Part shown: piece by piece, positions 32,968 to 57,381 of the stretch
How the letters are laid out: every line of letters begins with the position of its first letter
Position numbering within the stretch: position 1 is the stretch's first letter
From: Dehalococcoidia bacterium
GTDB taxonomy: Bacteria > Chloroflexota > Dehalococcoidia > Lucifugimonadales > UBA826
Direction: 5' to 3'
DNA length: 64,000 nt
Assembly: GCA_045564655.1 (NCBI GenBank)
Contig: JBJLGX010000022.1
Span: 9,274-73,273 of the forward strand
The notes under the pieces: model-generated
Told to the model about the DNA's origin: nothing
Database searches by the model: none
Seen by the model: only the letters and a program-made list of their open reading frames with translations
Position numbers and translations under genes: made by a program

Positions 32968-34401
32968 CTAGCATAGTTGATATTCACGAGTAGTTGTTAT
33001 TAATTGCATCATAGCTTTAGCATAATTTGTAGGTCCCAATGATCCTTCAGATTTATGTTCCCTAGCAAATGAAATTAATGTTTTTTTAGTTTCATCTCCA
33101 ATTTCTATAGAACCTAATGTTTCCATACAAGAATCTATAAAATCTAAAGGGTCTTCATCATATTTTGCTACAAGACTATCTATAATTTTTTTAACTCCTG
33201 GAGATTCTGTGTTCCCAAATTGTTCAGAACAGAAGTTGATTCTTTCTACAAGTGTTCCTGTATCAGACCATTCTAGTCCACCGTGCCAACCTTCCACTGT
33301 TGGGGGGTTATAAATATGCTGACCCATATTAACCATTGCCAAAAATATATTTCTTGCATCGAGTCTGGGGCCGTTTCCAAATTTGTCTGTCAGGCGCGTC
33401 ACACTAATAACTAATTCGGATGGACTTTTCACTTTTTTATAAAAATTTGATCTGTCTTTAAACTCTTCTGACAAAAATAGAGCTCTGAGCATTTCTTTTA
33501 TGTTGTAGTCAGTTTCAAAGTAAACTTTTTTCAGTTTTTCTATAAGTTTTGGGTTATTTGGTTTTACGTATGGCCATTGAGTTACGGGTACCTCATCGGC
33601 AAGAAAGAAATTACAGATATGTCTTGATATGAAAGTTGCAGTTGCCTCTTGTTTGCAAATAATTCTCACAATGTCTTCACCTGTAAAGTTGCCAGTTTCC
33701 CCTAAAAATGTTTTTTCACCATTGTCATGATCTTCAGGTAAATACTGAAATTGCCAGGCATATCTTCCATATGGTTGAAATGAACACTTTGAAGCTTGCG
33801 CGTCTATATAATCACCGTTCACAACGGTCCATCCTGTAAATGCTCGAGCGCATTCTTTTACATCGGTTTCAGTGTAATTGCCTACTCCCATAGAAAATAA
33901 TTCTAATAATTCACGTCCATAGTTTTCATTAATTTCATCTTTGTGGTTGGTCCAATTGTCTAGCCAATAGATCATTGCAGGGTCTTTTGATAAAGATATT
34001 AATAGGTTATCAAAAGAATTTAAACCATTGTCCCTGAACATAGATATTTGTCGTTTCATAGGAATTGCACCGGATAATTTTGTGACACTAGTTGCAAAAA
34101 TTGTGTGCCAAAACAATGCAATTTTTTCACTTAGCGGAGCATTTGTAGAAACCATTCTATAGATCCATTCTGTTGGACCACCATATGGGCCCATGGTTGC
34201 AGAAGTTTCTGTATGGTATCTCATGATAAGTGAGTCTGGCATTCGGGTGACATCAGTAGGCGTTAATAGTTCTTCTACTGTTTTTTCATATCCAACAGAT
34301 TCGTAATGATTTAATTCTTCTAAAGTGGATCCGAAACCAGCTCTTCTTAGTAAATGCGCAATTTGGTATTTTGATTCTGTTACTTTCTTCTTAGTTACCA
34401 T
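32968..34401 (-). CDS. DUF1800 family protein (paralogue of 23820-25223)
   Basis: HLLRRAGFG, LFWHTIF, DPAMIYWLDN, NENYGRELLELFSMGVGNY and ARAFTGW. Confidence 0.85.
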   Translation of the reverse strand: MVTKKKVTESKYQIAHLLRRAGFGSTLEELNHYESVGYEKTVEELLTPTDVTRMPDSLIMRYHTETSATMGPYGGPTEWIYRMVSTNAPLSEKIALFWHTIFATSVTKLSGAIPMKRQISMFRDNGLNSFDNLLISLSKDPAMIYWLDNWTNHKDEINENYGRELLELFSMGVGNYTETDVKECARAFTGWTVVNGDYIDAQASKCSFQPYGRYAWQFQYLPEDHDNGEKTFLGETGNFTGEDIVRIICKQEATATFISRHICNFFLADEVPVTQWPYVKPNNPKLIEKLKKVYFETDYNIKEMLRALFLSEEFKDRSNFYKKVKSPSELVISVTRLTDKFGNGPRLDARNIFLAMVNMGQHIYNPPTVEGWHGGLEWSDTGTLVERINFCSEQFGNTESPGVKKIIDSLVAKYDEDPLDFIDSCMETLGSIEIGDETKKTLISFAREHKSEGSLGPTNYAKAMMQLITTTREYQLC

Positions 34402-34516
34402 TAATAGTTACCCCTTGAAGCATCATGCTCTTTGATTATATGGCATCAGTCAAATTTCAAGAAACCTAAAAAAACTAACTGTTTATTCCTATAAATGTGT
34501 AGTTTAAATAACACAC

Positions 34517-34545
34517 TTGTATTTTATTACAAACATGTGTATTAT
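34517..34545 (+). promoter_or_regulatory. Promoter-like element TTGTAT-17-TATTAT embedded in an imperfect palindrome
   Basis: TTGTAT at 34517-34522 and TATTAT at 34540-34545, overlapped by ACACACTTGT-n8-ACAAACATGTGT (34511-34540). Confidence 0.4.
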
Positions 34546-34584
34546 ACTTAGCGTAATGCAATTTATTAAGTAGGAGGTTGTGAT

Positions 34585-34731
34585 ATGTACAACAAAAATA
34601 CATGCTACAGATGTGGTGGAAACTACGTTGAAGTTATAGAAATAGGTGCGGTTTTAATCAAATGTATTATGTGCGGTCGCGCCCCTTCATCAGTTATTAA
34701 AACATCTAAGCAAAAATCTAAAGCAGCTTAG
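34585..34731 (+). CDS. 48-aa zinc-ribbon micro-protein (CYRC-x16-CIMC, basic tail ending in AA)
   Basis: AGGAGG lies 7 nt before the ATG. Translation: MYNKNTCYRCGGNYVEVIEIGAVLIKCIMCGRAPSSVIKTSKQKSKAA. The stop is 13 nt before the next gene. Not in the ORF track. Confidence 0.5.
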   Translation: MYNKNTCYRCGGNYVEVIEIGAVLIKCIMCGRAPSSVIKTSKQKSKAA

Positions 34732-34744
34732 GAAAGGAGAAATT

Positions 34745-34954
34745 ATGAGTAAAGAAACAAAACTTAGTTCTTGGATAGAGATGGCCGAAGGCCTATACGA
34801 ATTTTTAAATCGGAGAAACACAACAATCCATTATGATTTTAAAGATCTTGATGTATTTGTTCCTCAAACAACAGGAGAAGATTCTGCTAGGGCAAAATGG
34901 ACAGTTAACGGAACTGTCAGTTTAAGTACGTCTGAGAAACCTCAAGGTAGCTAA
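34745..34954 (+). CDS. Hypothetical 69-aa protein
   Basis: AAGGAG RBS 6 nt upstream. No family recognised. Confidence 0.6.
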   Translation: MSKETKLSSWIEMAEGLYEFLNRRNTTIHYDFKDLDVFVPQTTGEDSARAKWTVNGTVSLSTSEKPQGS

Positions 34955-34959
34955 GGTTT

Positions 34960-35316
34960 ATGAATAACCAGAAGTACAATCTGACTGCTAGTGGATTAGT
35001 AAGTGTCAAATCAGACGATATGGAATGTGAGATCAAATTCGAATCAAATCGTGTTGTGCTGAATATAATTAGTATCAATTCAAAAAACTTACGGTCTTTT
35101 TTTAAGTTATCAGATTTGAAGAAAATAGTAATTGATATTTCAGATAAGTTAGCTTATTTAAAATTTAACTTAACAGTTAGATTTAAAAATTCAGATTTAG
35201 CCATTTTGGGATTAGATGCTAAACCAAATATGTTGCAAAAAATAATAGTATCAAAAAATATCGAAGTAAAAGATATTAAAAGTTTCGTAAAATTACTGGG
35301 AGGTAAATCAAAATGA
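34960..35316 (+). CDS. Hypothetical 118-aa protein
   Basis: 5-nt gap to the upstream gene and an ATGA overlap with the downstream gene. No family recognised. Confidence 0.6.
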   Translation: MNNQKYNLTASGLVSVKSDDMECEIKFESNRVVLNIISINSKNLRSFFKLSDLKKIVIDISDKLAYLKFNLTVRFKNSDLAILGLDAKPNMLQKIIVSKNIEVKDIKSFVKLLGGKSK

Positions 35317-36419
35317 CTTTTAAGTGGCAATTAAATAAGACCACTTCAGACGAAAATGCAAGTAATGTCAGACAACTTGTATTAGAAATGGATGAAGGTT
35401 TAAGAGGTAGTGGGCTACCAATAGAAGGTTTTGAATTTATTCATTCTTCTAAAAAGATGCTTGATATTACCAGGCAAATCGAGAATGATATATTGAGGTC
35501 ACAACAACCGTCGTCTTTGTATGTCGGTTTCCAATCTATAGAAAAATTAGATACTGAAATTTCTAGGTATGAAGAGCTTATAAATAATAATATAGAAGTT
35601 AAAGCATTTGGGATAGGAAAACCTAAAGACGAGCATAAACATTCTTTGAGCACATGGGTAGAGATCCCAAAATCTGTAAGCCTTGTTGAGAACCAGTGGT
35701 TTTTAGTGTCAGAATCTCCGTCACCTATAGCTTTTGTCGGCTGGGAAGTATCTGAGGAAATATTTGCAGAAGGAAAACTGTCTGATCCAGGTAAAATGTT
35801 TGAAGGGTTTGTCTCTTCGGATGAGCGAGTAATTAAATCTTTACTTCAGCATTTAGATTCAGTTTATATGACCAAATCTCAACAACCTATGGATGCAGAT
35901 GGATTGTCCTCTTTTATTGGCAGAAAAGTTGAGAAAGTGATGCTTGTTACCCATGATAAGCCTGAAAAAAACATGCCATTTGAGTATACTCAAATGATAA
36001 AAGACACCTCTGAAATTTGTGGAAAACTCGAATCAGAAGTTATTTTGTATGATTTGTCCGCAGCGTCCTTTTTCGTAGAACCTGGTGGTCACGGTGATAG
36101 TGCAGGTCAAAGATGGAAAGGTTTATTGAACAGACGGGATCTCGAATTACTTGGTAGAAATGATTTAAATAAGCAAATGGGTGTTATTGATGAAACAAAT
36201 GTAAACGCTCAAGCTTTATTGGCCGAGAAACACGGATTTGTGAGTATACATAAGGCGGCATTGGACCATAATGTTGATTTAGTCATAGTTCCTGAATATT
36301 ATGAAAACCCAAGTTTGATAGATAAAATTGTAGGGAATCAATTATCAAAATTAGATGACTATGAAGCGACCTCATTTGTTGTATATGATGTAGAAGGTAA
36401 CTTTAAACCATTTAATTAG
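35313..36419 (+). CDS. DICT-like sensory domain fused to a USP-like alpha/beta domain
   Basis: N-terminal half: LYVGFQS, SRYEEL, ENQWFLVSESP, MFEGFVSSDERV. C-terminal half: KVEKVMLVTHD...VDLVIVPEYY. The assignment is from memory of the family patterns, not from a search. Confidence 0.55.
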   Translation: MTFKWQLNKTTSDENASNVRQLVLEMDEGLRGSGLPIEGFEFIHSSKKMLDITRQIENDILRSQQPSSLYVGFQSIEKLDTEISRYEELINNNIEVKAFGIGKPKDEHKHSLSTWVEIPKSVSLVENQWFLVSESPSPIAFVGWEVSEEIFAEGKLSDPGKMFEGFVSSDERVIKSLLQHLDSVYMTKSQQPMDADGLSSFIGRKVEKVMLVTHDKPEKNMPFEYTQMIKDTSEICGKLESEVILYDLSAASFFVEPGGHGDSAGQRWKGLLNRRDLELLGRNDLNKQMGVIDETNVNAQALLAEKHGFVSIHKAALDHNVDLVIVPEYYENPSLIDKIVGNQLSKLDDYEATSFVVYDVEGNFKPFN

Positions 36420-36431
36420 AAGGTTATTTCA

Positions 36432-37874
36432 GTGAATATATTAATAACTGGAGCTACAGGATATGTAGGTTCAAGACTTGTTGCAGAATTGTCTAAAAGC
36501 CATCAAGTAAAAAGTTTAGTTAGAGATGAAAATTCTTACAGAGATAGGTTTAGACATTTAAACACAACTGTTTGTAAGGGTGACTTAATTGATCTAGAAA
36601 GTATTAGAAATCATTTTCAAGACGTCGATACCGCATTTTATTTGGTTCATTCACTTTCTGCAGGAAATAAATTTCATGATACTGAACTTCTGTGTGCTCA
36701 AAATTTTGTTGATGCCGCAAAAGAAAATGGAGTTAAGAGAATTGTTTATTTAGGTGGACTATCTGACCCCAAAAAACCTCTTTCTCCTCATCTGAGAAGC
36801 CGAAATGACGTAGGAGAACTACTTCGCTTGTCTGGAATACCTTGTATAGAACTTCAATCTTCAATAATAATTGGAGAAGGTGGATTATCTTATGAAATTA
36901 TGAAAAGTTTAGTTCATAAGCTGCCAATTATGATTACCCCTAAATGGGTTTCGTCTTTGTCACAGCCTATATGGATTAATGATGTGATTGAATATTTAAA
37001 AGAGAGTATATCTATAAAAATGTCTGGCAATTTGATTGCACAGATAGGCGGGCCCAGTATTGTCACATATAAAAATTTAATGGCTGCATATGCGGAAATA
37101 TATGGACTTAAAAGATTTATGATTCCTGTTCCTGTTTTAACTCCACGACTTTCTAGTTTATGGCTTGGGTTGGTTACTCCTGCATATGCAAGAGCAGGTA
37201 AAAAATTAATAGAAAGCTTAAAAACAAATAGTATTATTACAGACAAAAAAAGTTCTGAATTATTTAATGTAACTCCGGTTGATTATAAAGAAGCATTAAA
37301 GAATGTGATTAATGTAAAAGAATCAGATATGACAGTAGCCAGATGGTTTGACCCTGTTTCTGCAGGACCTAGCGTAAGCAATAAAATTTCTTCAAAAAAA
37401 ATTGTATATAAATATAAAATGACAGATGAGAGAAGAATAATAACTTCAGCTGATAAGGCCCAATCATTTAAGCCTATAAATGATATTGGTGGGCCTAATG
37501 GTTGGTATTTTGCAAATTTTTTATGGAAGATTAGAGGCTGGTTGGATTTATTAGTGGGAGGAGTCGGCACTAGAAGAACTAGATTTAAAAAAGATAGGTT
37601 TGTGATTGGAGACACGTTAGATTGGTGGAGAATTTCAGACACAATTGAAGGTGAAATGGTCGAATTTAAAGCTGAGATGAAGTTACCGGGGGAAGCATAT
37701 TTAAAATTTTCAGTTAATCCTTCTGGTAAAGATACTGAAATTGTTCAAACAGCTGGATTTAACACTAATAATTTAGCTGGAATATTATATTGGTATTCTT
37801 TATACCCACTTCATGCATTTATATTTTCGAGAATGATAAAATCTATAAAAAAGCGTACCTTACTTGTCAGGTAG
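36432..37874 (+). CDS. NAD(P)H-binding (atypical SDR) protein with a DUF2867-like C-terminal domain
   Basis: GTG start, then NILITGATGYVGSRL. The long C-terminal extension (WWRISD...) is typical of the fused DUF2867 type. Confidence 0.7.
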   Translation: MNILITGATGYVGSRLVAELSKSHQVKSLVRDENSYRDRFRHLNTTVCKGDLIDLESIRNHFQDVDTAFYLVHSLSAGNKFHDTELLCAQNFVDAAKENGVKRIVYLGGLSDPKKPLSPHLRSRNDVGELLRLSGIPCIELQSSIIIGEGGLSYEIMKSLVHKLPIMITPKWVSSLSQPIWINDVIEYLKESISIKMSGNLIAQIGGPSIVTYKNLMAAYAEIYGLKRFMIPVPVLTPRLSSLWLGLVTPAYARAGKKLIESLKTNSIITDKKSSELFNVTPVDYKEALKNVINVKESDMTVARWFDPVSAGPSVSNKISSKKIVYKYKMTDERRIITSADKAQSFKPINDIGGPNGWYFANFLWKIRGWLDLLVGGVGTRRTRFKKDRFVIGDTLDWWRISDTIEGEMVEFKAEMKLPGEAYLKFSVNPSGKDTEIVQTAGFNTNNLAGILYWYSLYPLHAFIFSRMIKSIKKRTLLVR

Positions 37875-38773: not shown

Positions 38774-38849
38774 GGGGCTGTAGCTCAGCCGGGAGAGCGC
38801 TTCAATGGCATTGAAGAGGTCAGGAGTTCGATCCTCCTCAGCTCCACCA
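38774..38849 (+). tRNA. tRNA-Ala (anticodon GGC), CCA encoded
   Basis: Cloverleaf by hand: acceptor ggggctg/cagctcc with the G3:U70 identity pair, D arm gctc..gagc, anticodon arm cttca-atGGCat-tgaag, T arm caggagttcgatcctcctc (stem aggag/ctcct). Confidence 0.93.
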
Positions 38850-38871: not shown

Positions 38872-39198
38872 ATGAGTGAATGGAATTATACAAAATGTGC
38901 TAAGCCTTTTTCATCGGAAGAAGATGCTTTAGACTTTATGGTCTCACAATCTTATGATGGACAGGTATTAAAAAGAAATGAAGGGTATTCGGCAGTTTGC
39001 CCAACGTATCCAGATGGGTTTTATCCTGATGCGACTCCTGTCGCAGCATACTCTGTCAAAACGGGCATTATTAGAGATGAAAAACTTTTCCATATTGTTA
39101 TGGAACCAGATGCAAATGAAAAAGAAACAATTATTTCAGAAGAGTGTTGCCCTGTGCCTGTTCAAGTTTCTGTAAATACTAATGAGAAGTGTTGTTAA
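38872..39198 (+). CDS. Hypothetical 108-aa protein with a Cys-rich C-terminus
   Basis: GGGGA RBS region upstream. The C-terminus reads ...EECCPVPVQVSVNTNEKCC. No family recognised. Confidence 0.5.
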   Translation: MSEWNYTKCAKPFSSEEDALDFMVSQSYDGQVLKRNEGYSAVCPTYPDGFYPDATPVAAYSVKTGIIRDEKLFHIVMEPDANEKETIISEECCPVPVQVSVNTNEKCC

Positions 39199-43231: not shown

Positions 43232-44383
43232 ATGTTTGTGGCTTCTAAGGATAAGATTTTACCTACAACGGTTATTGGCTCATACCCTAGACCACATTGG
43301 TATAAGGAAAGTTTGAATGGGCGATCATTTAAGGACGCCTTAACAGACCAACTTTTTAGAGAACAATATTTTGATGCTGTATCTTCAACTATTAGTGATC
43401 AAACAAGGGCAGGATTAGATATTGTTACTGATGGAGATTCGAGATTTGATCTCGATGTTGGGGGGAGGTCTTGGTTTTTTTACCCTATTGAAAGACTGAA
43501 AGGTATAGAAGGTAGTGTAACAGGCTCAACTAGATGGAAGGATAGGTTTGGAATATACCCAGGACATATACTTTGGGAAGTTCAAGAAGCTTATCAACCA
43601 GCTCGTGTTGTAGATAAGATAGAGAGGGGATCTCTAGAATATAAGGATGTTTGGAAGGTAGCTCAAAAATTTACTGATAAGCCTGTTAAATTTGGTTCGA
43701 TTAGCGCTCAGTGTATTCCTGGAATGCTTGAGAATGAATATTATGATTCTGAACAAGATCTTGTTATGGATTTAGCTGATTGCATAAATCAGGAATTAAG
43801 AGAATTAGATAATGCCGGCTGTCCAGTTATTCAAGTTGAAGAACCTGCAATACATATGGGAGCAACAACTCAAGGTTATGAAACCTTGGAATTTTTAGTT
43901 AAGGCTTTTAATAAAGAGGTTTCTGGTATTAAAACTGAAGTTTGGGCTCATACATGTTGGGGTAACCCCAACCAGCAATCAATGCACTGGAATAGACCTT
44001 CTTATAGAGATTCATTAGAATATTTATGGCAACTTGATGCCGATGTAATTACTTTTGAGTGTGCTAGTTCTAAGGGTGCTGAAATATCAATATTATCTGA
44101 TATCCCAAAAGATAAAAAATTAGCGATTGGCGTTGTAAGTCATACCAATACAAATGTTGAACCACCTGGGGTAGTTGCTGAAGTTATCCGTAAAGCTTTA
44201 AAAATAGTTCCCCCTGAAAGATTAATCATTTCATCAGATTGTGGATTTGGAAGAGAAGGCCTTTCAAGAAGAATAGCTTTTTATAAATGCGTATCTATAG
44301 TTATGGGGACGAATATTGTAAGAAAAGAGCTTGGTTTACCTGAGGTAGATATCCCTGCAGCTAATGAGAACTTATATTTTTAA
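43232..44383 (+). CDS. Cobalamin-independent methionine synthase (MetE C-terminal domain) family protein
   Basis: 383-aa single-domain form. Putative Zn ligands in HTCWGN and SSDCGFG. Confidence 0.75.
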   Translation: MFVASKDKILPTTVIGSYPRPHWYKESLNGRSFKDALTDQLFREQYFDAVSSTISDQTRAGLDIVTDGDSRFDLDVGGRSWFFYPIERLKGIEGSVTGSTRWKDRFGIYPGHILWEVQEAYQPARVVDKIERGSLEYKDVWKVAQKFTDKPVKFGSISAQCIPGMLENEYYDSEQDLVMDLADCINQELRELDNAGCPVIQVEEPAIHMGATTQGYETLEFLVKAFNKEVSGIKTEVWAHTCWGNPNQQSMHWNRPSYRDSLEYLWQLDADVITFECASSKGAEISILSDIPKDKKLAIGVVSHTNTNVEPPGVVAEVIRKALKIVPPERLIISSDCGFGREGLSRRIAFYKCVSIVMGTNIVRKELGLPEVDIPAANENLYF

Positions 44384-44940
44384 ATTGAATTATTTTCAAA
44401 TTCTGTCGATAACATTCCCATAATAATAGAGTCATGCCTTACCCCGTCATGGGGACGACTTTTTCTAAGGGTTCCTTCATGAACAAAACCGATATGTTCA
44501 AACAGACTTTTAGCTGCTTCGTTATAGTCAGGGATATCAGCCCACACTCGAAATAAACCATAAGAATTAAATGAAATATCTAATGTGGCTCTTAATGTTG
44601 CGGTTCCGTAACCTTTATGCCAATGATCTTTGTCACCAATAAGTATAGATATTTGAGCATCACCTAGAGATTCTTCAATAGTTATGTGAATTTCTCCAAT
44701 ATGTTCATTAGTTTCAGTATATATGGAAAAAATTCTATGTTCTGGATTTTCAAATATGGAATCCCATTCTTCTATACTGAGGCTATCTACTTTTTCTGGA
44801 TGGTATCCTAAATGAGCAGGGTCACCATATGAATATCTTCCAAACCAACTTTCAGCTATAGATTCATTAGATAACCAAGCAGTTATTCTTTTAACATCAT
44901 CTCTAGTAACATGTTGTAATAGTATTTTTTGATCTGTCAT
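44380..44940 (-). CDS. GNAT family N-acetyltransferase
   Basis: WHKGYGT acetyl-CoA loop region and a RimJ/RimL-like pattern. Confidence 0.8.
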   Translation of the reverse strand: MTDQKILLQHVTRDDVKRITAWLSNESIAESWFGRYSYGDPAHLGYHPEKVDSLSIEEWDSIFENPEHRIFSIYTETNEHIGEIHITIEESLGDAQISILIGDKDHWHKGYGTATLRATLDISFNSYGLFRVWADIPDYNEAAKSLFEHIGFVHEGTLRKSRPHDGVRHDSIIMGMLSTEFENNSI

Positions 44941-45085
44941 TTGAACCTTCCAATAAGATATCCTAATCCTTATGGTTTTTTGATATTATCATTATTGTGA
45001 ATAGAAGGTCATTAGTCAATAAAGGCTCACATGATTATATTAATGTTAATTTAACATAAATGAATTAATTCAATAAGGAATAGAG

Positions 45086-46156
45086 ATGTTAGAGAGATTA
45101 TCTTCCCTTGAGGATAGATATGAGGAATTGAATAAACTACTTTCAGATCCTGAGATAGTAACTGACTACATGCAGATCGAGAAATATGCTAAGGAACAAT
45201 CTGCTATTAGAGAAGTGGTTGAACTTGCTAGGAGTTATAGAAAAACATTAGAAGATTTAGAAGAAATTTCTCAGATGATTAAAAGCGAAAATGATTCTGA
45301 CCTTATTGCAATGGCGAAAACTGAACAGTTAGATTTAGAGAAAAAAAAAGTTATTGCTGAAGAAAATTTAAAAATGGCACTAATACCCCAAGACCCAAAT
45401 GATGAAAGAAATGTCATTATGGAAATTAGAGCAGGAACAGGGGGAGAAGAGGCGGGGTTGTTTGCGTCTGATTTGTATAGGATGTATTCACGTTTTGCGC
45501 AGCGGGTTAATTGGAAATTAGAAGTAATTAATTCTAATACTACTGGCATTGGGGGTCTTAAAGAAATTACATTTCAAGTTAATGGAGATATGGCTTACAG
45601 TCAACTCAAACACGAAAGTGGTGTCCATAGAGTTCAGCGAGTTCCAGCTACAGAATCAAGTGGCAGAATACACACTTCTGCTGTAACCGTTGCGGTTTTA
45701 CCTGAGGCTGAAGAAGTTGATGTTCAGATTAATCCTGATGAGATTCAAATTGATATTTATCATGCTAGTGGACATGGAGGCCAGAACGTTCAAAAAGTTG
45801 CCACAGCTGTGCGGATAACACATATCCCTACTGGACTTGTGACAACATGCCAAGATGAAAGATCTCAATATAAAAATAAAGAAAAAGCTTTATCTGTTTT
45901 AAGGTCTAGATTGTTAGCATCTGAATTAGAGAAGCAACAAAAGGAAATTACTGATGAAAGAAGATCTCAAGTTGGTTCAGGAGATCGTTCTGAAAGGGTC
46001 AGGACATACAATTTTCCCCAAGGACGAGTCACAGATCATAGAATAGGTTTAACAAGTTATAGCCTAGATCAAATGCTTGATGGTGAAATCAGTGAATTCG
46101 TTGAAGCGTTAGTACATGATGACCAAGCTAGGAAATTAGAAGAAATAGGCTCTTGA
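45086..46156 (+). CDS. prfA: Peptide chain release factor 1
   Basis: PAT tripeptide (RVPATES) and the GGQ motif (SGHGGQNVQK). Confidence 0.97.
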   Translation: MLERLSSLEDRYEELNKLLSDPEIVTDYMQIEKYAKEQSAIREVVELARSYRKTLEDLEEISQMIKSENDSDLIAMAKTEQLDLEKKKVIAEENLKMALIPQDPNDERNVIMEIRAGTGGEEAGLFASDLYRMYSRFAQRVNWKLEVINSNTTGIGGLKEITFQVNGDMAYSQLKHESGVHRVQRVPATESSGRIHTSAVTVAVLPEAEEVDVQINPDEIQIDIYHASGHGGQNVQKVATAVRITHIPTGLVTTCQDERSQYKNKEKALSVLRSRLLASELEKQQKEITDERRSQVGSGDRSERVRTYNFPQGRVTDHRIGLTSYSLDQMLDGEISEFVEALVHDDQARKLEEIGS

Positions 46157-47037
46157 AAATAAAAGAAATTTTATACGAGACTTCAAAACAATTAGAAAAA
46201 TTTGGTATTTTAGATTTTGATTTAGAGGCTGAAGTTCTGGTTAGATATATCCTCAAAATTGACAGGGAAACGATATTTCAAGACTTGAATAAGAACTTGC
46301 AAGAGATCCAAAAGAAATCAATATATGCAGTTACAGAAAAACGTTTAAAAGGATATCCTCTTTCATATATTACAGGGCAACGTGAATTTTATGGAATTGA
46401 AATAGGAGTCAAAGAGGGGGTTTTAATACCTAGGCAAGAAACAGAATTATTGATTGAAACAGCAATTAATATTGCTAATAATCTCGAAAATAAAAACTTA
46501 AAGATTGCCGATATCGGTACAGGTAGCGGGGCAATAGCTATAGCTATTGCAATTAATATACCAAATTCTTTAGTTTATGCTTCTGATATTAGTAAGGAAG
46601 CACTTTGTGTTGCAGATGAGAATGTAAAAAAATATTCGTTAGGGAATAGAATTTTATTAAATCAGGGTGATTTACTAGAAAATATATTAGATAAGGTAGA
46701 CATTATTTTATCCAATCCCCCCTATATTCCTACTGCTCAGTTATGTGATTTGTCACAAGAAGTTTTGGCTGAACCTAGAATTGCTTTAGATGGAGGCTCA
46801 AATGGACTTAAGGTTATTTCTAAGCTTTTTAAAGAAGCGGTTGATAAATTATCAGATTCAGGATTTATGATTATTGAAATTACCCCAGAGATATCAACTC
46901 AAGTAGCGTCTTTGGCAAAAAAATACTTTCCAAAAGCTAATATTTTGATTCTGAAAGACCTTATGCATAATAATCGTGCCGTTTTAATAAATAGATCTAT
47001 TGCTAATTTTGCTGAATATCACTCTAGGCCTAATTGA
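46153..47037 (+). CDS. prmC: Release factor glutamine N5-methyltransferase
   Basis: DIGTGSGAIAI and NPPY motifs. 4-nt overlap with prfA. Confidence 0.9.
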   Translation: MKIKEILYETSKQLEKFGILDFDLEAEVLVRYILKIDRETIFQDLNKNLQEIQKKSIYAVTEKRLKGYPLSYITGQREFYGIEIGVKEGVLIPRQETELLIETAINIANNLENKNLKIADIGTGSGAIAIAIAINIPNSLVYASDISKEALCVADENVKKYSLGNRILLNQGDLLENILDKVDIILSNPPYIPTAQLCDLSQEVLAEPRIALDGGSNGLKVISKLFKEAVDKLSDSGFMIIEITPEISTQVASLAKKYFPKANILILKDLMHNNRAVLINRSIANFAEYHSRPN

Positions 47038-48152
47038 TAATGTTTCCCCTCTGTTTTTATAGATGGGGCTACTACTATTTCAGCATTATGCATTTCTTTA
47101 ATATTCGTTGCTCCAACCATTCCCATACACGCCTTAAGAGCTCCTATGAGATTTTGTGTTCCATTTGATACTGAAGATGGACCATGGAATAGTTGCTTTA
47201 AAGTTCCCTTTGTTCCTACTTTTACTCTAGTTCCTCTAGGTAGTGCAGGGTGAGGGCTTGCCATACCCCAATTAACGCCGTTTGCGGGAGCTTCTTCTGA
47301 TTGTGCTAGTGGGGTGCCTATCATAACAGCATCTGCCCCACTTGCAATTGATTTGCAGAGTTCTCCACCTGTTCTTATTCCACCATCAGTTATGATGGGA
47401 ATATATTTTCCGGTCCGATTGTAGAATTCATCTCTTGCCTGTGCACAGTCCATAGTTGCAGTTACTTGAGGTACCCCTACACCGGTAACCTCCCTAGTTG
47501 TACAGGCAGCACCGGGACCAACTCCTACCAGAATTCCATGAATGCCAGTCTCCATTATTTCTAAGGCAACATCGTAACCTACACAGTTTCCTACCAATAT
47601 AGGTACATCCACTAATTCTAGTAGTTCAGGGAATTTTAATCCTTGTAAACTACGAGATGAGTGACGAGCCGTTGTAACTGTAGATTGAACTACTAGCATG
47701 TCAGCTCCAGCCTCAACTGCAATGGGGCCTAATTTTTTTGTAAGTGCAGGTGTAACTGAAACAGCACAATAAGCCCCAGTAGACTTTATTTCCCGTACTC
47801 TTTTTTCTATTAGCTCGTTATTTATAGGTTTTGAATAGATTTTTTGCATTGTTTTTGTAACATCGTTAGGAGAAGACGCAGAAATTTCGTCAATAGCATC
47901 TTGGGGGTTATCATATCTAGTCTGTACTCCCTCTAGGTTCATTACACTCATCGCGCCTTGTCTATGCATCTCACCGGCAAATTGAGGGCTTGCTACAGCA
48001 TCCATAGCTGAACCCAATATTGGAATATTGATAGTTACATCTCCTAGAGAAAATGAGGTGTCTGTCATGTCGGGGTTTATTGTCATAGCTCCAGGAACAA
48101 TCGCAACTTCATCAAATCCGTAAACTCTTCTTAATTCTCTAAAGTTAGTCAT
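47019..48152 (-). CDS. IMP dehydrogenase-related protein without CBS insert (GuaB3-like)
   Basis: FDEVAIVPG, the GVGPGAACTTR catalytic-loop analogue and DGGIRTGG. Confidence 0.8.
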   Translation of the reverse strand: MTNFRELRRVYGFDEVAIVPGAMTINPDMTDTSFSLGDVTINIPILGSAMDAVASPQFAGEMHRQGAMSVMNLEGVQTRYDNPQDAIDEISASSPNDVTKTMQKIYSKPINNELIEKRVREIKSTGAYCAVSVTPALTKKLGPIAVEAGADMLVVQSTVTTARHSSRSLQGLKFPELLELVDVPILVGNCVGYDVALEIMETGIHGILVGVGPGAACTTREVTGVGVPQVTATMDCAQARDEFYNRTGKYIPIITDGGIRTGGELCKSIASGADAVMIGTPLAQSEEAPANGVNWGMASPHPALPRGTRVKVGTKGTLKQLFHGPSSVSNGTQNLIGALKACMGMVGATNIKEMHNAEIVVAPSIKTEGKHYQLGLE

Positions 48153-48233
48153 ATAAGAACCTCCGAATGTGAAGCCATTTTAGTATCAATTTGATATCAA
48201 TATGTAATTCAAATCAAATATATTAGGTACTTG

Positions 48234-48262
48234 ATGATATGGATGTGCGTTTATAGTGTCAA
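48234..48262 (-). promoter_or_regulatory. Sigma-70-like promoter TTGACA-17-TATCAT for the guaB3-like gene
   Basis: Minus strand: TTGACA at 48262-48257, a 17-nt spacer, TATCAT at 48239-48234. Confidence 0.6.
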
Positions 48263-48339
48263 CAGTATGAATTGCTTTTTATTTAAGATTATTTTATCAA
48301 TCTAGCTGTAAATCGACTATTTTATATCTGGGTTACAGA

Positions 48340-49152
48340 CTAGATTATAAATACTTCAGAATTTACACTTTTTATTCCTGGGTACTTAGTACTTTTTGCA
48401 GCAATTTTATTTGCTATATTTCCCGAGTAAATTATTTTTTTTGTTTTATAAAATTCTAATGAAAAAACAGAAGCAAATATGTCGCCGGCCCCTATAGTGT
48501 TTATTGCTTGTGTAGGAAAAGGAGAAATATCAATAATTTTATCTTTAATATATATTTTGGCTCCATTTTTGCCCTGAGTAACCACTAATATTTTTGCTAA
48601 ATTCTTTAAATGTTCCATGGGTATTTTACTGTTTGATATTTCTTCTTCAGAAAAAAAAACGATATTGAAAAATGGTAAATTGCTTAACATTGAATAATCA
48701 AAACTGACATTTTTATTTTCCAATTTTCTTATCCAGCCTTGAGGCATTCCTACGAAAAAAGAGTTTTTATATTTATTCATTAATTCCTCAGTTTTTTTAA
48801 TAGAAAACTCATTTAAAACAGGTGCAATAAAAATCAAATCAGGAACCCTTTCCAAGTTGATGTTGGTTAGATCAATCAGATTGCTTGAAGAAATAACCAT
48901 CATTTTTCGATTATCAGAAGAAATAGAAAAATCAAACTTGTTAGTTTTATCACTTTTGATATTAATAACACGGCTAGTTTTAGGGAAGTTAGTATAAGAA
49001 AAATCTTTTCCGAAGCTTGTTACTGCCGTAATGTTGTGTTGCCCTAACTGGTATAAAGAATTAGTTATATACGTAACTGGCCCTCCAGGGCTAAAATAGT
49101 CACCATCAATGTAATCTACGGTTGGGTTGCCAATAATTAAAATATCAGTCAT
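48340..49152 (-). CDS. PfkB family carbohydrate/nucleoside kinase
   Basis: TIGAGDIFASVF (GAGD anion-hole motif) near the C-terminus. Confidence 0.75.
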   Translation of the reverse strand: MTDILIIGNPTVDYIDGDYFSPGGPVTYITNSLYQLGQHNITAVTSFGKDFSYTNFPKTSRVINIKSDKTNKFDFSISSDNRKMMVISSSNLIDLTNINLERVPDLIFIAPVLNEFSIKKTEELMNKYKNSFFVGMPQGWIRKLENKNVSFDYSMLSNLPFFNIVFFSEEEISNSKIPMEHLKNLAKILVVTQGKNGAKIYIKDKIIDISPFPTQAINTIGAGDIFASVFSLEFYKTKKIIYSGNIANKIAAKSTKYPGIKSVNSEVFII

Positions 49153-49293
49153 GTATTTGTTTGCTGAAACCTTATATATACATATTTTTATTTAAACAAA
49201 TTAATAAGTTCACTTGATTTTTAGGAGTTGGAACAATTCTTTTTGTAGTAAGTCTGAATTCTAAGCAATCAAATGATCATGTACGATTTATTG

Positions 49294-49322
49294 ATGATAT
49301 GGACGTGCTTATATGCTGTCAA
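49294..49322 (-). promoter_or_regulatory. Sigma-70-like promoter TTGACA-17-TATCAT for the PfkB kinase gene (near-copy of 48234-48262)
   Basis: Minus strand: TTGACA at 49322-49317, a 17-nt spacer, TATCAT at 49299-49294. Confidence 0.6.
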
Positions 49323-49370
49323 TAATATTATCCATTTCATTAAAATCACGTTAGAATCATAAAGATTATT

Positions 49371-50516
49371 ATGAATACTGAAATTGTAAAAAATTTAGCA
49401 AAAGATATAGGGTTTGATATCGTTAAGATAACAAATGCGGATTCATTTGTTGAAGATGAAAAAGCTGCATTAAAAAGATTTAATGATGGCCATATAAATG
49501 ATTATCCTTGGTACGATAAAGATAGGATAAAACTTATGAATAGACCTGCCTTGTTATTGGAAGGTGCTAAATCCGTCATATCCCTTGGGGCTAGTTATTT
49601 AAATCCCGATACATCTGATGATGAATCTGGTAAATTACGCGGTAAAATTGCAAAGTACGCTTTGGGCGATGATTATCATAAAGTCTTAAAGAAACGTCTT
49701 AAACTATTTTGTAGTCAGATATCGGGTCATGTAGGGAGAGAAGTTAAGACAAGGATATTTGTTGATGATGGACCAATGAATGATAGGGCAGCAGCTCGGA
49801 GATCAGGATTGGGTTGGGTAGGGAAAAACACTAATATCATTACGGAAAATTATGGATCTTGGGTATTGTTAGGTCAGGTAATTACAGATTTAGAGTTAAA
49901 TATTGATGAGCCGTTAAAGAAGAATTGCGGTAATTGTGTTCGGTGCATAGATGATTGCCCAACAGGCGCCATTGTAGCTCCATATGTTATAGATAATTCT
50001 AAATGTATTTCATATTTAACGATTGAACTTAAAGGGGTAATCCCTAGAGATATGAGACCACTACTAGGAGATTGGATTTTTGGATGTGATATCTGCCAAG
50101 ATATTTGCCCTGTAAACAGAAAGGCGGAATTTGGGACTACTAGAGAATTTGAAAAACGCCAAGGATTTGAATTCACAGAATTATTACCTGTTTTGGATAT
50201 GGACCAAGAGACATTTAGCAAAATTTATAAAAATAGCCCCATAAAGAGAGCTAAATTAAATGGTCTCAAAAGAAATGTATGTGTAGCTTTGGGTAATAGT
50301 GGTGATTCACGTGCTATTGAACCGCTATCTAAAATATTGAAAAATTCTGATTCAGTCCTGAAAATACACGCGGCTTGGGCTTTAGGGCGTATAGGAGGTA
50401 TGTCGGCATATCAAATACTTTTAGAAGAATTAGATAAAGACAACTCTATAGAAGTTAAAGATGAGATTGAAAACTCTTTAGCTGATTTACAGTCAGTAAG
50501 TGATAAGCATAATTAA
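49371..50516 (+). CDS. queG: Epoxyqueuosine reductase
   Basis: 4Fe-4S motifs CGNCVRCIDDCP and CDICQDICP, plus a C-terminal HEAT-like repeat. Confidence 0.9.
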   Translation: MNTEIVKNLAKDIGFDIVKITNADSFVEDEKAALKRFNDGHINDYPWYDKDRIKLMNRPALLLEGAKSVISLGASYLNPDTSDDESGKLRGKIAKYALGDDYHKVLKKRLKLFCSQISGHVGREVKTRIFVDDGPMNDRAAARRSGLGWVGKNTNIITENYGSWVLLGQVITDLELNIDEPLKKNCGNCVRCIDDCPTGAIVAPYVIDNSKCISYLTIELKGVIPRDMRPLLGDWIFGCDICQDICPVNRKAEFGTTREFEKRQGFEFTELLPVLDMDQETFSKIYKNSPIKRAKLNGLKRNVCVALGNSGDSRAIEPLSKILKNSDSVLKIHAAWALGRIGGMSAYQILLEELDKDNSIEVKDEIENSLADLQSVSDKHN

Positions 50517-50525
50517 GGGATTAGT

Positions 50526-51287
50526 GTGGCAGGCAAAATTTTTTTAATAAATGTTGGAAGTAATGCTAATCATTCTTTTTGCAGTCCCATATTTAATGAC
50601 AGGACATTCGAATTTATTCCAATACCCGAAGATATAGAAGTTTCATATCCTCATGGTATTAAATATAGGGATTTGAGATCTTATTACGATCCAGCAAGTA
50701 ATTTAGATTTATATATCCCAGAAAATTTACGAGATGTATCTATGCATAATGATCCGGAGTTTGACACTTTTACTTATGGTGATAATTGTGATGTAAATCC
50801 AAGAGCTTCTGCATTAAGAAAAGTTTCAAGGGGTGATTTTCTAATATTTATTTCTAGGTTACAAAATTGGGTCGAAGGTGCTCCAACTAATATTTTTGGT
50901 TTTTATTTAATAGGCTATATACATGTAGATCAGGTTGCCGAATCTATAGTTAGTAAGTTAGATAAAAGCCTTATGAAAAGATTTTCTGTTAATGCTCATG
51001 TGAGAGCAGCCATGTTTAATGAGAGTATGTGGAATTCATTTTGGCTTTTTTCGGGTTCTTCTTGGTCAAAAAGGTTTTTTAAAGCAGTTCCTGTGACAAA
51101 ATCTTTTTGTGATGATGTTTTTAGAAAATCAAATGGTGATAAGTGGGATTGGAAAGAAAATAGGACAGACCTGCAAGTTATTGGTTCATATACTAGGACT
51201 TGTAGACCTATTTTGAATTCTAATATTGAATCTGACCATAAGAGGATTAATATTTTGTGGGAATGGATATCAAAGTATTCAGAATGA
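50526..51287 (+). CDS. Hypothetical 253-aa protein coupled to queG
   Basis: GTG start 9 nt after the queG stop, with an AAGGGA RBS. N-terminus IFLINVGSNANHSFCSPIFNDRTFEFIPIPED. Confidence 0.6.
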   Translation: MAGKIFLINVGSNANHSFCSPIFNDRTFEFIPIPEDIEVSYPHGIKYRDLRSYYDPASNLDLYIPENLRDVSMHNDPEFDTFTYGDNCDVNPRASALRKVSRGDFLIFISRLQNWVEGAPTNIFGFYLIGYIHVDQVAESIVSKLDKSLMKRFSVNAHVRAAMFNESMWNSFWLFSGSSWSKRFFKAVPVTKSFCDDVFRKSNGDKWDWKENRTDLQVIGSYTRTCRPILNSNIESDHKRINILWEWISKYSE

Positions 51288-51320
51288 TAATGTTTAATAA
51301 ACATGATAAACTTCTTGCTA

Positions 51321-51420
51321 CGCCGGGGGAGCTTAGTTATCTAGGCTGAGAGGGTAGAAATACCGACTCCTTTTGATACCTATTTAGATAATGCTAAATA
51401 GGGAGTGCTAATCTTCTCCG
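51321..51420 (+). promoter_or_regulatory. TPP (THI-box) riboswitch
   Basis: GGGGAGC, then the hairpin agcttag-ttat-ctaggct, then CTGAGAGG...ACC...TTTGATACC, then tatttag-ATAATG-ctaaata, then GGGAG. CCGG (51323-51326) can pair with CCGG (51417-51420). Confidence 0.85.
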
Positions 51421-51451
51421 GTATTCATTAAATATAAGGTGGCATTATTAT

Positions 51452-52231
51452 TTGAATACCAATATTCCTGATAATTCATTGGATAGAGTATTTCTTAAAG
51501 ATGTTAATTATTCTTTGGACTCATTAGAAGTTCTTAGAAGTATTAATTTTTCCGTTAATTCTAGAGAAATAGTGTCTATTATCGGCCCTAGTGGATGTGG
51601 AAAAAGTTCGATTTTGAATTTAATTTCTGGGATTCAAAGTCCTAGCTCTGGTCATATTAAGGTTGAAGGTAAAAGTGATCAATCTGATCGACTGAATATG
51701 ATTTCATATATGCAACAAAAAGACCTATTGCTACCTTGGAGAACAGTTTTAAGTAATGTAATTTTAGGCCTTGAAATCCAAGGTGTTGCGAAAAAAGAAG
51801 CTAAGGAAATCGCAATGGCCCAAATGGAAAAATTTGGTCTTTTAGGTTTTGAAGATAAATATCCTTTTACATTATCTGGTGGAATGAGGCAAAGGGCTGC
51901 TTTCTTGCGGACTATTTTAATGGATAGGCCTGTTTTGTTATTAGATGAACCTTTCAGTTCATTAGACGCGTTAAATCGCATGCAAATGCAAGAATGGGTA
52001 ATTAAGTTGTTTGATAACGTGAACAAGACGGTTATTTTTGTTACCCATGATATAGATGAAGCTATTTTCTTGTCAGATAGAATCTATGTCATGTCTCCAT
52101 CTCCAGGGCAAATTGTTTCTGTTGAAGATATTAAATTGAAACGACCAAGATCTAGGGAAGTAATGTTAACTTCACACGTTTTAGATATGAAAAACCGTTT
52201 ATTAAATCAACTTTTGCAACCAGTAGTTTAG
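51452..52231 (+). CDS. ABC transporter ATPase (NitT/TauT-type)
   Basis: Walker A GPSGCGKSS, signature LSGGMRQR, Walker B LLLDEP. TTG start after AAGGTGG. Confidence 0.9.
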   Translation: MNTNIPDNSLDRVFLKDVNYSLDSLEVLRSINFSVNSREIVSIIGPSGCGKSSILNLISGIQSPSSGHIKVEGKSDQSDRLNMISYMQQKDLLLPWRTVLSNVILGLEIQGVAKKEAKEIAMAQMEKFGLLGFEDKYPFTLSGGMRQRAAFLRTILMDRPVLLLDEPFSSLDALNRMQMQEWVIKLFDNVNKTVIFVTHDIDEAIFLSDRIYVMSPSPGQIVSVEDIKLKRPRSREVMLTSHVLDMKNRLLNQLLQPVV

Positions 52232-52238
52232 GAGGGGT

Positions 52239-53012
52239 ATGAAAAACCAATTAACATGGGTCCCCCCAATATTTTTTATCATAGTACTTTTACTAATATG
52301 GGATATTTTAGTAAAAGTTAACGATGTTCCTTCATGGCTTTTACCTAGTCCTTCTGAAATATTCCAAGCTATGCTAGATAATGTTCGTATACTTACATCA
52401 CATACGATTACAACATTAACGGAAGTGTTATTAGGTTTTGCTATCGCTTTGCTTGTAGGATTATTGTTATCCTCCGCGATTACATTGTCTAATACTGTTG
52501 AAAAGTCATTTTATCCATTAATTATTGCTTCACAGACTATTCCTATAATTGTTATTGCACCAATGTTATTGGTTTGGGTTGGATATGGACTAATGCCAAA
52601 AATAATTGTCGTTGCGCTCATTAGTTTTTTCCCCATTGTTGTCAATACAGTTGATGGGATGAAATCTATCGATATGGATTTAGAGAGATTGTTTAAAACA
52701 ATGGGTGCTAATAAATGGGATATATTTAGAAAAATCAGGATTCCGAATTCATTACCATATATGTTTTCAGGGTTAAGAGTTGCAATATCTATTAGTGTTA
52801 TTGGGGCTGTAATTGGGGAATGGGTAGGTTCTAGTGAGGGATTAGGATATTTAATGATCAGATCAAAGCCACAATTTCAGACAGAACTTGTGTTTGCAGC
52901 AATATTTATTTTGTCTATTATGGGGATTATTTTATTTTTTGGAATTGGGTTGTTAGAAAAAATATGTATCCCTTGGAACAACTTTAGAAAGGGAGATAAC
53001 TTTGGTAAATAA
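52239..53012 (+). CDS. ABC transporter permease
   Basis: Six-TM BPD-type permease containing an EAA-like loop. Confidence 0.88.
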   Translation: MKNQLTWVPPIFFIIVLLLIWDILVKVNDVPSWLLPSPSEIFQAMLDNVRILTSHTITTLTEVLLGFAIALLVGLLLSSAITLSNTVEKSFYPLIIASQTIPIIVIAPMLLVWVGYGLMPKIIVVALISFFPIVVNTVDGMKSIDMDLERLFKTMGANKWDIFRKIRIPNSLPYMFSGLRVAISISVIGAVIGEWVGSSEGLGYLMIRSKPQFQTELVFAAIFILSIMGIILFFGIGLLEKICIPWNNFRKGDNFGK

Positions 53013-54000
53013 TTTGTATATGAAAAATTTAGCTTTTTTAGCTGTGTTTATACTTTTAAGTATTTTTGTTAGTGCATGTGACGAGCAAAATGATGGTAAA
53101 GATGTAACATTAGCACTAGACTGGTTCCCTAATGCTAATCACATAGGGTTATATATAGCAGAAGATAAAGGATACTTTAAAGAAGAAGGCTTGAATGTAG
53201 AAATACGTACTCCTTCAGATCCATCTACTATATTACAAACTGTTGCCTCAGGAACTGATGATTTTGGTATTAATTATCAACCTGATTTATTAATTGCACG
53301 AGACGCAGGGGTCCCTGTAGTTTCTATCCTTGGAATGGTACAACACCCATTGAATTCAATTATGACACTTAAATCTTCGGAGTATAAGTCTTTAAGTGAT
53401 TTGAAGAATAAGAAAATTGGATATCCTGGTATTCCGTGGAATGAAGATGCCCTTGATACGATGTTGAAAACGGATGGGCTTACAGGAATTGAGGATGTTG
53501 AATTAGTAAATGTTGGCTGGGAATTAGGTACATCATTGATGTCTGGAAAAGTGGATGCTGTTATTGGGGCATATTTTACCCATGAGAGTATTAGCTTAGA
53601 AAATGAAGGATACCCAGTAGATATTTTCAGAATGGAAAATTGGGGTGTCCCCGATTATTATGAACTTATTTTAGTTACTAGTGAGACTTATTTAGAAGAT
53701 AATTCTGAAACAGTTCAAAGTATTACAAGAGCTATTACAAAAGGGTATGAGGATGCTATTAGAGATCCTCAATCTGGCGCAGATATTTTAAAGAAATATT
53801 CTCCAGATATTGATGAGTCTATTGATAGGCCAGGTGCAGATCTTTTACAAAATCTTTGGGTAGACCCAGGTGTAAATTTTGGAAATCAGACATCAGAAAA
53901 ATGGAATAATTTTGGAAATTGGATGAAAGATAACAGTATTATTTCTGATAATTTAAACATTGATGAGGCTTATACAGAAGAATTTTTTCTGATTAAATGA
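53002..54000 (+). CDS. NMT1/THI5-like (ThiY-type) substrate-binding lipoprotein
   Basis: Signal sequence with VSAC lipobox. LALDWFPNANH is typical of NMT1/ThiY binding proteins. TTG start after AAGGGAGA. Confidence 0.8.
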   Translation: MVNNLYMKNLAFLAVFILLSIFVSACDEQNDGKDVTLALDWFPNANHIGLYIAEDKGYFKEEGLNVEIRTPSDPSTILQTVASGTDDFGINYQPDLLIARDAGVPVVSILGMVQHPLNSIMTLKSSEYKSLSDLKNKKIGYPGIPWNEDALDTMLKTDGLTGIEDVELVNVGWELGTSLMSGKVDAVIGAYFTHESISLENEGYPVDIFRMENWGVPDYYELILVTSETYLEDNSETVQSITRAITKGYEDAIRDPQSGADILKKYSPDIDESIDRPGADLLQNLWVDPGVNFGNQTSEKWNNFGNWMKDNSIISDNLNIDEAYTEEFFLIK

Positions 54001-54032
54001 AACTTATTTATAAAATAGAGGTATAAATATTT

Positions 54033-54842: not shown

Positions 54843-54843
54843 A

Positions 54844-57317: not shown

Positions 57318-57381
57318 TTATTCTTTTTAAGGTAAGCATTTCTTTATTTCTTCTGATCTAGTTAAGATCTATTCATCTGTA

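Follow-up and report, generated by a model that had tools for sequence, protein, structure and literature searches.

A strongly transcribed SAR202 operon that joins a DICT-USP protein to a widespread small-protein cassette, with a possible role in the response to light

What might a bacterium do with a sensor-like protein that carries no recognisable output and is encoded at the end of a tightly packed string of small genes? This question is raised by positions 34,517 to 36,419 of a 64,000-nucleotide (nt) stretch of contig JBJLGX010000022.1 (assembly GCA_045564655.1), hereafter called the window, which derives from a marine SAR202 bacterium (Chloroflexota, Dehalococcoidia). The string consists of four open reading frames (ORFs), followed by a gene for a short-chain dehydrogenase/reductase (SDR). 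We compared it with homologous loci, designated here by L-numbers; the closest genome locus, L001, shares 84% identity with the window at the 368-aa protein, and the other loci carrying this protein belong to SAR202 or Dehalococcoidia metagenome-assembled genomes. As set out below, the string appears to be a composite of two modules, and its gene neighbourhood in relatives points to light, a lead that the first-pass annotation of this DNA had missed. The genes are as follows.

34585-34731, + strand: zn48, a 48-aa Zn-ribbon micro-protein
34745-34954, + strand: p69, 69 aa, a member of a very large unnamed family of small proteins
34960-35316, + strand: p118, 118 aa, the fast-evolving partner of p69
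35313-36419, + strand: DICT-USP, 368 aa, a DICT domain followed by an alpha/beta domain like that of universal stress proteins (USP)
36432-37874, + strand: YbjT-like SDR-DUF2867, 480 aa with a GTG start, matching Pfam NmrA/NAD_binding_10 and DUF2867

The gaps between zn48 and p69 and between p69 and p118 measure 13 nt and 5 nt, p118 and DICT-USP share an ATGA stop/start overlap, and the SDR-DUF2867 gene starts (36432) 12 nt past the DICT-USP stop. Purine-rich ribosome-binding sites precede the first four ORFs (AGGAGG at 34572-34577 for zn48, then AAGGAG, AAGG and GGGAGG for the next three). This layout had been described by the first-pass annotation, and all of its coordinates were re-found in the sequence. 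The small ORFs proved to be conserved and syntenic in related genomes, the full order of Zn-ribbon gene, p69, p118, DICT-USP and SDR gene, in places with a further gene ahead of the last, being kept in seven further SAR202 loci (L001-L007). Relative to L001, the ratio of non-synonymous to synonymous substitution rates (dN/dS) is 0.065 for zn48, 0.13 for p69, 0.058 for DICT-USP and 0.081 for the 480-aa SDR-DUF2867 gene; p118 evolves fast, with proportions of non-synonymous (pN) and synonymous (pS) differences of 0.26 and 0.77, the latter being saturated. Judged by these substitution patterns, all four ORFs of the string are under purifying selection.

The evidence for transcription comes from unstranded assembler contigs of four metatranscriptome runs of one sample, in which depth is a rough guide only. 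In these runs, single RNA contigs cover 34573-36506, 34576-36308, 34576-36394 and 34678-36277 at 48-60x, so that one RNA contig of ~1.9 kb spans all four genes. Neighbouring genes stay at 0-9x: the upstream DUF1800 gene reaches 0-3x and the downstream 480-aa gene 3-8x, the latter being ~10-fold lower than the four genes ahead of it, and nothing else exceeds 26x within the parts of the window that were examined (1-38200 and 44001-64000). The ~10-fold contrast with both flanks nonetheless argues for one abundant transcript that spans the four genes and runs on weakly into the fifth gene. In four runs of other studies, pieces of the operon are present and nothing from its flanks. Altogether, these data argue for strong transcription of zn48, p69, p118 and DICT-USP as one RNA, and the translational coupling and co-transcription that had been proposed for the string are borne out by the ATGA overlap and by the single contigs. 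We hold the four-gene architecture, its conservation and its expression, as described here, with high confidence.

The two small proteins at the centre of the string had been called orphan or family-less, and this description has to be abandoned. Neither p69 nor p118 has a Pfam or NCBIfam match, singly or across 71 family members, and sequence-profile searches of the PDB returned for both nothing meaningful, only designed proteins. Nevertheless, an exhaustive HMMER search retrieved 93 representative clusters of p69 at E<1e-3, and a metagenome scan with a narrow p69 alignment confirmed at least 471 loci from many phyla. Named members, all labelled 'hypothetical', occur in Bacteroidota, Planctomycetota, Gammaproteobacteria, SAR324 and Halobacteriales, and a further one lies in a locus of actinobacterial appearance. 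The family consensus reads WPDLAxGLYDxLTGRxAEIxYxF...VxVP..TG..A..AxWKLNGTLxIRT, and across SAR202 p69 is better conserved than DICT-USP (62-79% vs 38-50% identity). Its AlphaFold model (pLDDT 76.6) consists of a helix (residues 3-23) and a long beta-hairpin, for which Foldseek found no matching fold in the PDB, the best E-value being no better than 1.4.

Among 80 metagenome loci used for neighbour counts, p69 is directly followed by an ORF in 61, and 40 of these ORFs form a single family. This is the family to which p118 belongs: a hidden Markov model (HMM) of the p69 partners matches the window p118 at E 8e-7, an HMM of SAR202 p118 proteins matches the partners down to 2e-10, and hhalign compares p118 with partners from other phyla at E 2.8e-4. 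The pair is also found in Lewinella, Amphritea and haloarchaeal contigs.

The third member of this association is an oxidoreductase. In a Pfam census of the 146 ORFs flanking p69, NAD_binding_10/NmrA/Epimerase domains (19-21 ORFs) and DUF2867 (15 ORFs) stand far above all others, and a full-length homologue of the 480-aa window gene adjoins p69 in 33/80 metagenome loci (tblastn), where it either follows the partner in the same direction or is divergent at a distance of 34-430 nt. The product of 36432-37874 itself matches NmrA (1.1e-18), NAD_binding_10 (3.2e-17) and DUF2867 (4.5e-27) in Pfam, as expected of a YbjT-like atypical SDR with a C-terminal DUF2867 domain, and its gene is syntenic in L001-L007, L044 and L069. 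Because of the 33 adjoining homologues and of the domain census, we take the conserved unit to be p69, p118 and the YbjT-like SDR-DUF2867 gene, together a widespread, uncharacterised three-gene cassette of bacteria and haloarchaea. That the downstream NAD(P)-binding/DUF2867 gene might be part of the same unit had been suggested in passing, and has become the best-supported linkage of the locus.

The other module centres on the DICT-USP protein, a family of ~370 aa that is almost confined to Chloroflexota (77 protein clusters, 57 genome loci), with invariant motifs that include YVGFQ, ENQWFLV, FVGWE, GKxFxGF and SAAS. Both halves of the proposed domain assignment are upheld. The DICT domain (PF10069) scores 32.2 bits against a Pfam gathering threshold of 23.8 (E 1.2e-7, residues 44-136; ~1-190 in the model) and is matched in 27/27 aligned family members. 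The USP-like alpha/beta domain occupies approximately residues 205-368. The Usp HMM (PF00582) does not match the window protein at E<=1 and does match 10/27 aligned relatives (best E 1.9e-5); a PDB profile search gave a weak match to the USP 2dum (E 0.32, query residues 300-362) and otherwise designed proteins. An AlphaFold model built from the family alignment (pLDDT 85.5, pTM 0.80) retrieved through Foldseek the USP structures 5ahw, 7ji4, 1jmv, 6hcd and 3qtb with probability 1.0 and template-modelling (TM) scores, normalised to the target, of 0.59-0.74; the best of these are cAMP-bound MSMEG_3811 (5ahw, TM 0.74) and the c-di-AMP-bound USP domain of KdpD (7ji4). The Foldseek table carries no query ranges, and the USP matches were placed in the C-terminal half because the Usp HMM matches and the weak PDB profile match lie there. 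This domain carries the conserved SAAS loop with a disordered insert.

Other Foldseek matches of the same model are PLD-like (NucT, TM 0.52; PLD3, TM 0.23-0.27; C-terminal domains of PPK1) and were assigned to the N-terminal half (35313-35880). Catalysis of the PLD/NucT type was considered for the DICT half and rejected: there is no HxK(x)4D motif and no His-x-Lys, and eight residues separate the invariant residues K161 and D170 (K-x8-D). Since the HKD motif is absent, we read the likeness as one of fold only; provided that the N-terminal assignment holds, DICT would be an inactive ligand-binding domain of PLD fold, the TM scores being low. Pfam searches detected no GGDEF, EAL, HD-GYP, STAS, histidine-kinase or other enzymatic or DNA-binding output in the 368-aa protein, nor the usual DICT outputs in the products of neighbouring genes, in agreement with the earlier description of a sensor that lacks such an output. 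The literature searched contains no functional study of the DICT domain (PF10069), of DUF2867 or of ybjT.

The Zn-ribbon assignment of the first gene is well founded. The zn48 protein has the form CxxC-x16-CxxC followed by a Lys-rich tail ending in Ala-Ala, and its two CxxC knuckles (C7, C10, C27 and C30) are invariant among 11 loci; it falls into no specific Pfam family, the best E-values (0.02-0.04) lying below thresholds. A homologue stands directly in front of DICT-USP in L011, L013 and L057, all of which lack p69 and p118. The Ala-Ala terminus is present in 9/11 zn48 loci (as KAA, TAA, RAA or IAA; 34717-34728 in the window), while the preceding Lys-rich tail varies in length and sequence; its resemblance to an ssrA-like C-terminal degron suggests that zn48 may be a short-lived protein. 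As a separate observation, a second SDR of the NAD-dependent epimerase/3-beta-HSD type is encoded immediately upstream of the Zn-ribbon gene in L002 (4109-5104), L005 (4142-5185) and L007 (733-1671), and those operons are therefore SDR-flanked on both sides.

How do these parts belong together? The p69-p118 pair mostly occurs without DICT, and DICT-USP mostly without the pair, which is why we regard the string as a composite of modules and why the 'self-contained' module that the first-pass annotation had envisaged does not hold. DICT-USP stands alone in most high-GC Dehalococcoidia, and L044 and L069/L070 have p69-p118-DICT-USP-SDR without a Zn-ribbon gene, their DICT-USP being only ~34% identical to the window protein. 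By this distribution, the Zn-ribbon and DICT-USP genes of these marine SAR202 lineages are seated inside an older p69-p118-SDR cassette.

The first indication of what the composite may be for comes from the genes that surround it in relatives. In L004 the start of a photolyase gene overlaps the DICT-USP stop; a photolyase gene also directly follows DICT-USP in L013 and L044, a fragment of one is found at that place in L069, and in L052 a photolyase gene lies upstream. In both L005 and L007, DICT-USP is separated from the SDR gene by a rhodopsin gene. In three loci, the gene directly upstream encodes a regulator with B12-binding_2 and B12-binding domains and a C-terminal helix-turn-helix (HTH) domain of the XRE type (HTH_3), in which both the domains and the Wx9EH motif were read:

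L011, 4637-5530, + strand: B12 regulator with a C-terminal HTH_3 domain
L044, 4132-5082, - strand: B12 regulator with a C-terminal HTH_3 domain
L032, 4405-5292, - strand: B12 regulator with a C-terminal HTH_3 domain

The Wx9EH motif marks the light-sensing B12 domains of CarH-type proteins, and the combination of B12-binding domains with a C-terminal XRE-type HTH may represent an undescribed architecture of B12 photoreceptor-repressors. A classical MerR-B12 protein of the CarH/LitR type, again with Wx9EH, is encoded divergently to the DICT gene in L024, and for L051 tblastn similarity points to a CarH-like gene at the corresponding divergent place. Globally, a light-type gene stands beside the operon in 6 of ~9 low-GC SAR202 lineages. 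Some p69 cassettes of other phyla have comparable neighbours, namely CarH-like regulators (L059, L083), rhodopsins (L113, L126) and a DPRP photolyase-related gene (L071). In the actinobacterial-looking locus L059 (64-873, - strand, and 1120-1455, + strand), p69 and its partner come after a WhiB gene, with the CarH-like B12 regulator divergently upstream, a possible light- or redox-controlled WhiB-p69-p118 unit.

The region ahead of zn48 offers candidate sites for such control in the window itself:

34517-34545, + strand: putative sigma-70-like promoter, TTGTAT-17-TATTAT, read directly from the sequence
34490-34546, no strand assigned: promoter region with three overlapping imperfect palindromes, at 34490-34521, 34511-34540 and 34525-34546 (ACATGT core)

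This element had been noted earlier, as lying within an imperfect palindrome. Its letters are present, and the RNA contigs start downstream of it, at 34573-34576; as a promoter call it fares less well, since the -35 hexamer TTGTAT agrees with TTGACA at 3/6 positions only and is weak, a consensus promoter scan does not list the element, and promoter-like matches in the region are no commoner than in shuffled sequences. The palindrome at 34511-34540 is likewise present, imperfect as described, and overlaps the two others. The three are candidate operators, for ACATGT is found in 6/10 non-redundant upstream regions of related operons vs ~0.05 expected per region. ACATGT-core and ATGTGT/ACACAT inverted repeats recur near promoters in L001, L002, L005-L007 and L013, at a variable distance from the start codon (-49 to -108). 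We also considered the ACATGT palindrome as a LexA box and dropped this reading because, by inspection, the spacing of its half-sites does not fit GAAC-N4-GTTC. Rfam detected no riboswitch or leader (E<=1, 34350-36500), and a terminator scan found none between DICT-USP and the SDR gene.

Taking these observations together, we propose that the operon belongs to a light or photo-oxidative stress response, and we put the probability of this at roughly 0.45. In addition to the gene neighbourhoods, Pfam's own description of the domain expects DICT to take part in the response to light (quoted in PMC8612252), and cultured SAR202 strains display an unexplained sensitivity to light, being inhibited or killed by it (PMC10444878). 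Several observations pull the other way. No light gene is adjacent to the operon in this window or in L001-L003 and L006, and tblastn found no B12 regulator in the 64-kb window. The window does encode a photolyase (2396-3811, + strand), 32-37% identical to those that follow DICT-USP in L004 and L013, but it lies 31 kb away and is barely transcribed in runs that cover the operon at ~50x. Most high-GC DICT-USP loci have only lineage-specific, non-light neighbours; outside SAR202, light genes near p69 cassettes are a small minority of ~94 loci; and p69 has some neighbours of a redox type, namely WhiB in L059 and, in L065, a catalase with a LysR regulator, which would suit a wider role in redox stress. 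The RNA runs bear codes that do not tell light from dark, and they speak for high expression only. As regards the protein, the USP-like domain lacks the ATP motif G-2x-G-9x-G(S/T), reading P-x-L-x-x-R-x-x-G instead (by eye; family consensus P-x-L-x-D-R-L-x-G-x-x-L), and we know of no chromophore-binding motif for DICT.

If the operon does serve a light or photo-oxidative stress response, it could work as follows. Two modules are joined in it, the p69-p118-SDR-DUF2867 cassette and the Chloroflexota DICT-USP gene preceded by its Zn-ribbon micro-protein. Transcription would start at the putative promoter overlapped by the palindromes, and in relatives its likely regulator would be the B12-dependent, light-released repressor of CarH type encoded next door; the products would be made in coupled amounts. 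DICT-USP might bind a small ligand, the candidates being a nucleotide in the USP-like pocket and another ligand or a chromophore in DICT. Because it has no catalytic or DNA-binding output, it is proposed to act by protein contact, be it with p118/p69, with the Zn-ribbon protein or with the SDR-DUF2867 enzyme. What the data show is that the genes are real, conserved and co-transcribed, together with their domains and folds, the tie of p69 and p118 to the SDR gene and the light genes near the operon in relatives; light control in this genome, the binding of ligands, the protein contacts and any chemistry of SDR-DUF2867 are all steps that we infer. A bolder version, which we regard as rather improbable, holds that p69, p118 and the YbjT-like SDR make up an unrecognised and widespread system of photoprotection or oxidative-damage handling in bacteria and haloarchaea, to which SAR202 added DICT-USP and the Zn-ribbon protein as a sensor; DICT would then be a new output-less domain sensing light or photoproducts, and the system would underlie the light sensitivity or tolerance of SAR202.

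The nearest competitor is a module for general stress or second-messenger signalling that has nothing to do with light, in which the USP-like domain would bind ATP, cAMP or c-di-AMP and report the energy or redox state, the cassette would handle oxidative or metabolic stress, and the light genes would be mere neighbours, photo-oxidation being one of many inputs. That the best fold matches of DICT-USP are nucleotide-binding USPs (5ahw with cAMP, 7ji4 with c-di-AMP) is in keeping with this, and so are the redox-type neighbours of p69 (catalase/LysR in L065, WhiB in L059, amine oxidase and DCC1-like genes) and the lack of any light gene around the majority of DICT-USP and of p69 loci. Mere neighbourhood does not easily account, however, for light genes placed inside the operon, be it a photolyase that overlaps the end of DICT-USP or a rhodopsin that separates DICT-USP from the SDR gene, nor for B12 photoreceptor-type regulators directly adjacent in five lineages, and the ATP-binding glycine motif is absent; we think this explanation unlikely. 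Could the locus instead be nothing but a co-transcribed juxtaposition of genes unrelated in function, the DICT-USP and Zn-ribbon genes having landed in the p69-p118-SDR cassette of a compact genome and sharing a promoter only? The modules do occur separately elsewhere, and the SDR gene is transcribed at a level ~10-fold below that of the four genes upstream. Yet the gene order persists even among lineages that share only 34-50% identity in DICT-USP, the tight gaps and the stop/start overlap are maintained, and light genes have repeatedly been inserted at the same DICT-USP/SDR junction, so that a functionally empty association looks distinctly improbable to us.

The first-pass annotation had itself favoured a ligand-sensing or partner-switching module formed by the four products alone. 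The missing output domain, the ATGA coupling and the co-transcription all fit such a device, as does the association of DICT with STAS that Pfam notes in other proteins (quoted in PMC8612252). The hallmarks of partner switching are nonetheless missing: Pfam detected no STAS domain, anti-sigma kinase, PP2C or sigma factor in or beside the string. Moreover, p69-p118 and DICT-USP mostly do without each other, and p69-p118 is conserved together with an oxidoreductase rather than with a signalling protein, which leaves this reading with a poor chance of being right. Small, tightly coupled and unannotated ORFs, one of them with an Ala-Ala end reminiscent of a protease tag, might also call to mind a toxin-antitoxin or anti-phage defence cassette. 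Against it stand the lack of any PADLOC or PHROGs match of any weight at E<=0.1, the stable chromosomal position, syntenic across species, the strong purifying selection, the absence of mobile-element genes nearby and, once more, a 480-aa oxidoreductase as the conserved partner; we give this idea hardly any credence. A light or photo-oxidative stress response is the reading that we favour.

A few features elsewhere in the window deserve mention. Beyond the SDR-DUF2867 gene and a tRNA-Ala(GGC) gene (38774-38849), a 108-aa ORF without a Pfam match (38872-39198, + strand) overlaps the start of an acyltransferase_3 gene and has a Cys-rich end (...EECCPVPVQ...NEKCC). Next to the operon itself, the region with the most abundant transcript in these RNA runs is 62650-63380 (18-26x); in this area the contig of one run skips 62965-63575, and a short RNA contig of 63 nt joins 63716-63734 to 57463-57480.

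SAR202 bacteria are among the most abundant bacterial groups of the ocean, and the operon described here yields the strongest transcript in the examined parts of the 64-kb window. Linked as it is in related genomes to genes for photolyase, rhodopsin and B12 light-switch regulators, it is a concrete candidate for light sensing or light tolerance in SAR202, and the hypothesis is directly testable because cultured strains show unexplained light sensitivity (PMC10444878). It also gives a context to three unnamed or uncharacterised families, that is, the very large p69 family found in many phyla, p118 and the DICT-USP architecture, and connects p69-p118 with YbjT/DUF2867, a conserved protein without a known function that is present in E. 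coli too.

Where does this place the operon among known systems? As the first-pass annotation had maintained, it corresponds to no described one: Pfam, NCBIfam, PADLOC, PHROGs and the literature gave no match. The closest frame is that of the CarH/LitR B12-dependent light regulons, which govern photolyase and carotenoid genes of non-phototrophs. The operons of relatives resemble them in having Wx9EH B12 regulators, a photolyase or a rhodopsin, and the window in having a palindrome that overlaps its putative promoter; they differ in that the window encodes no such regulator and in that three of the neighbouring regulators have their domains reversed, an XRE-type HTH at the C-terminus taking the place of the MerR HTH at the N-terminus. 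To our knowledge, and in the literature searched, no such regulon has been described with any of the four products among its members.

DICT is usually fused N-terminally to GGDEF, EAL, HD-GYP, STAS or histidine-kinase domains, a usual context and not a requirement of the domain. The window protein shares with these signalling proteins an N-terminal half that scores above the PF10069 gathering threshold; in place of an enzymatic or kinase output it has a USP-like partner domain, and it forms a ~370-aa family of its own. Compared with universal stress proteins (PF00582; MSMEG_3811, KdpD-USP), its C-terminal domain has the USP alpha/beta fold, and the Usp HMM matches 10/27 of its relatives; in the window protein the domain has neither that match nor the ATP motif, possesses the SAAS loop and is fused to DICT. 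Partner-switching systems such as RsbR/S/T or SpoIIAA-AB provide a looser parallel: only the idea of an output-less sensor acting through small partners, as in RsbR/S/T, is alike, whereas STAS, serine kinase and PP2C proteins are absent from the string and its neighbours. E. coli YbjT has the same NAD(P)-binding plus DUF2867 architecture as the product of 36432-37874 and is itself uncharacterised, its family being listed among the COGs as 'Uncharacterized protein YbjT (DUF2867 family)' (PMC12630448); a link of this family to p69-p118 is not described in the literature searched. In sum, no characterisation exists of p69, of p118, of the tie between these families and YbjT/DUF2867 or of the DICT-USP architecture, and what is already known is the frame into which we would place them, the CarH/LitR-type light regulon, together with the DICT and USP domains themselves.

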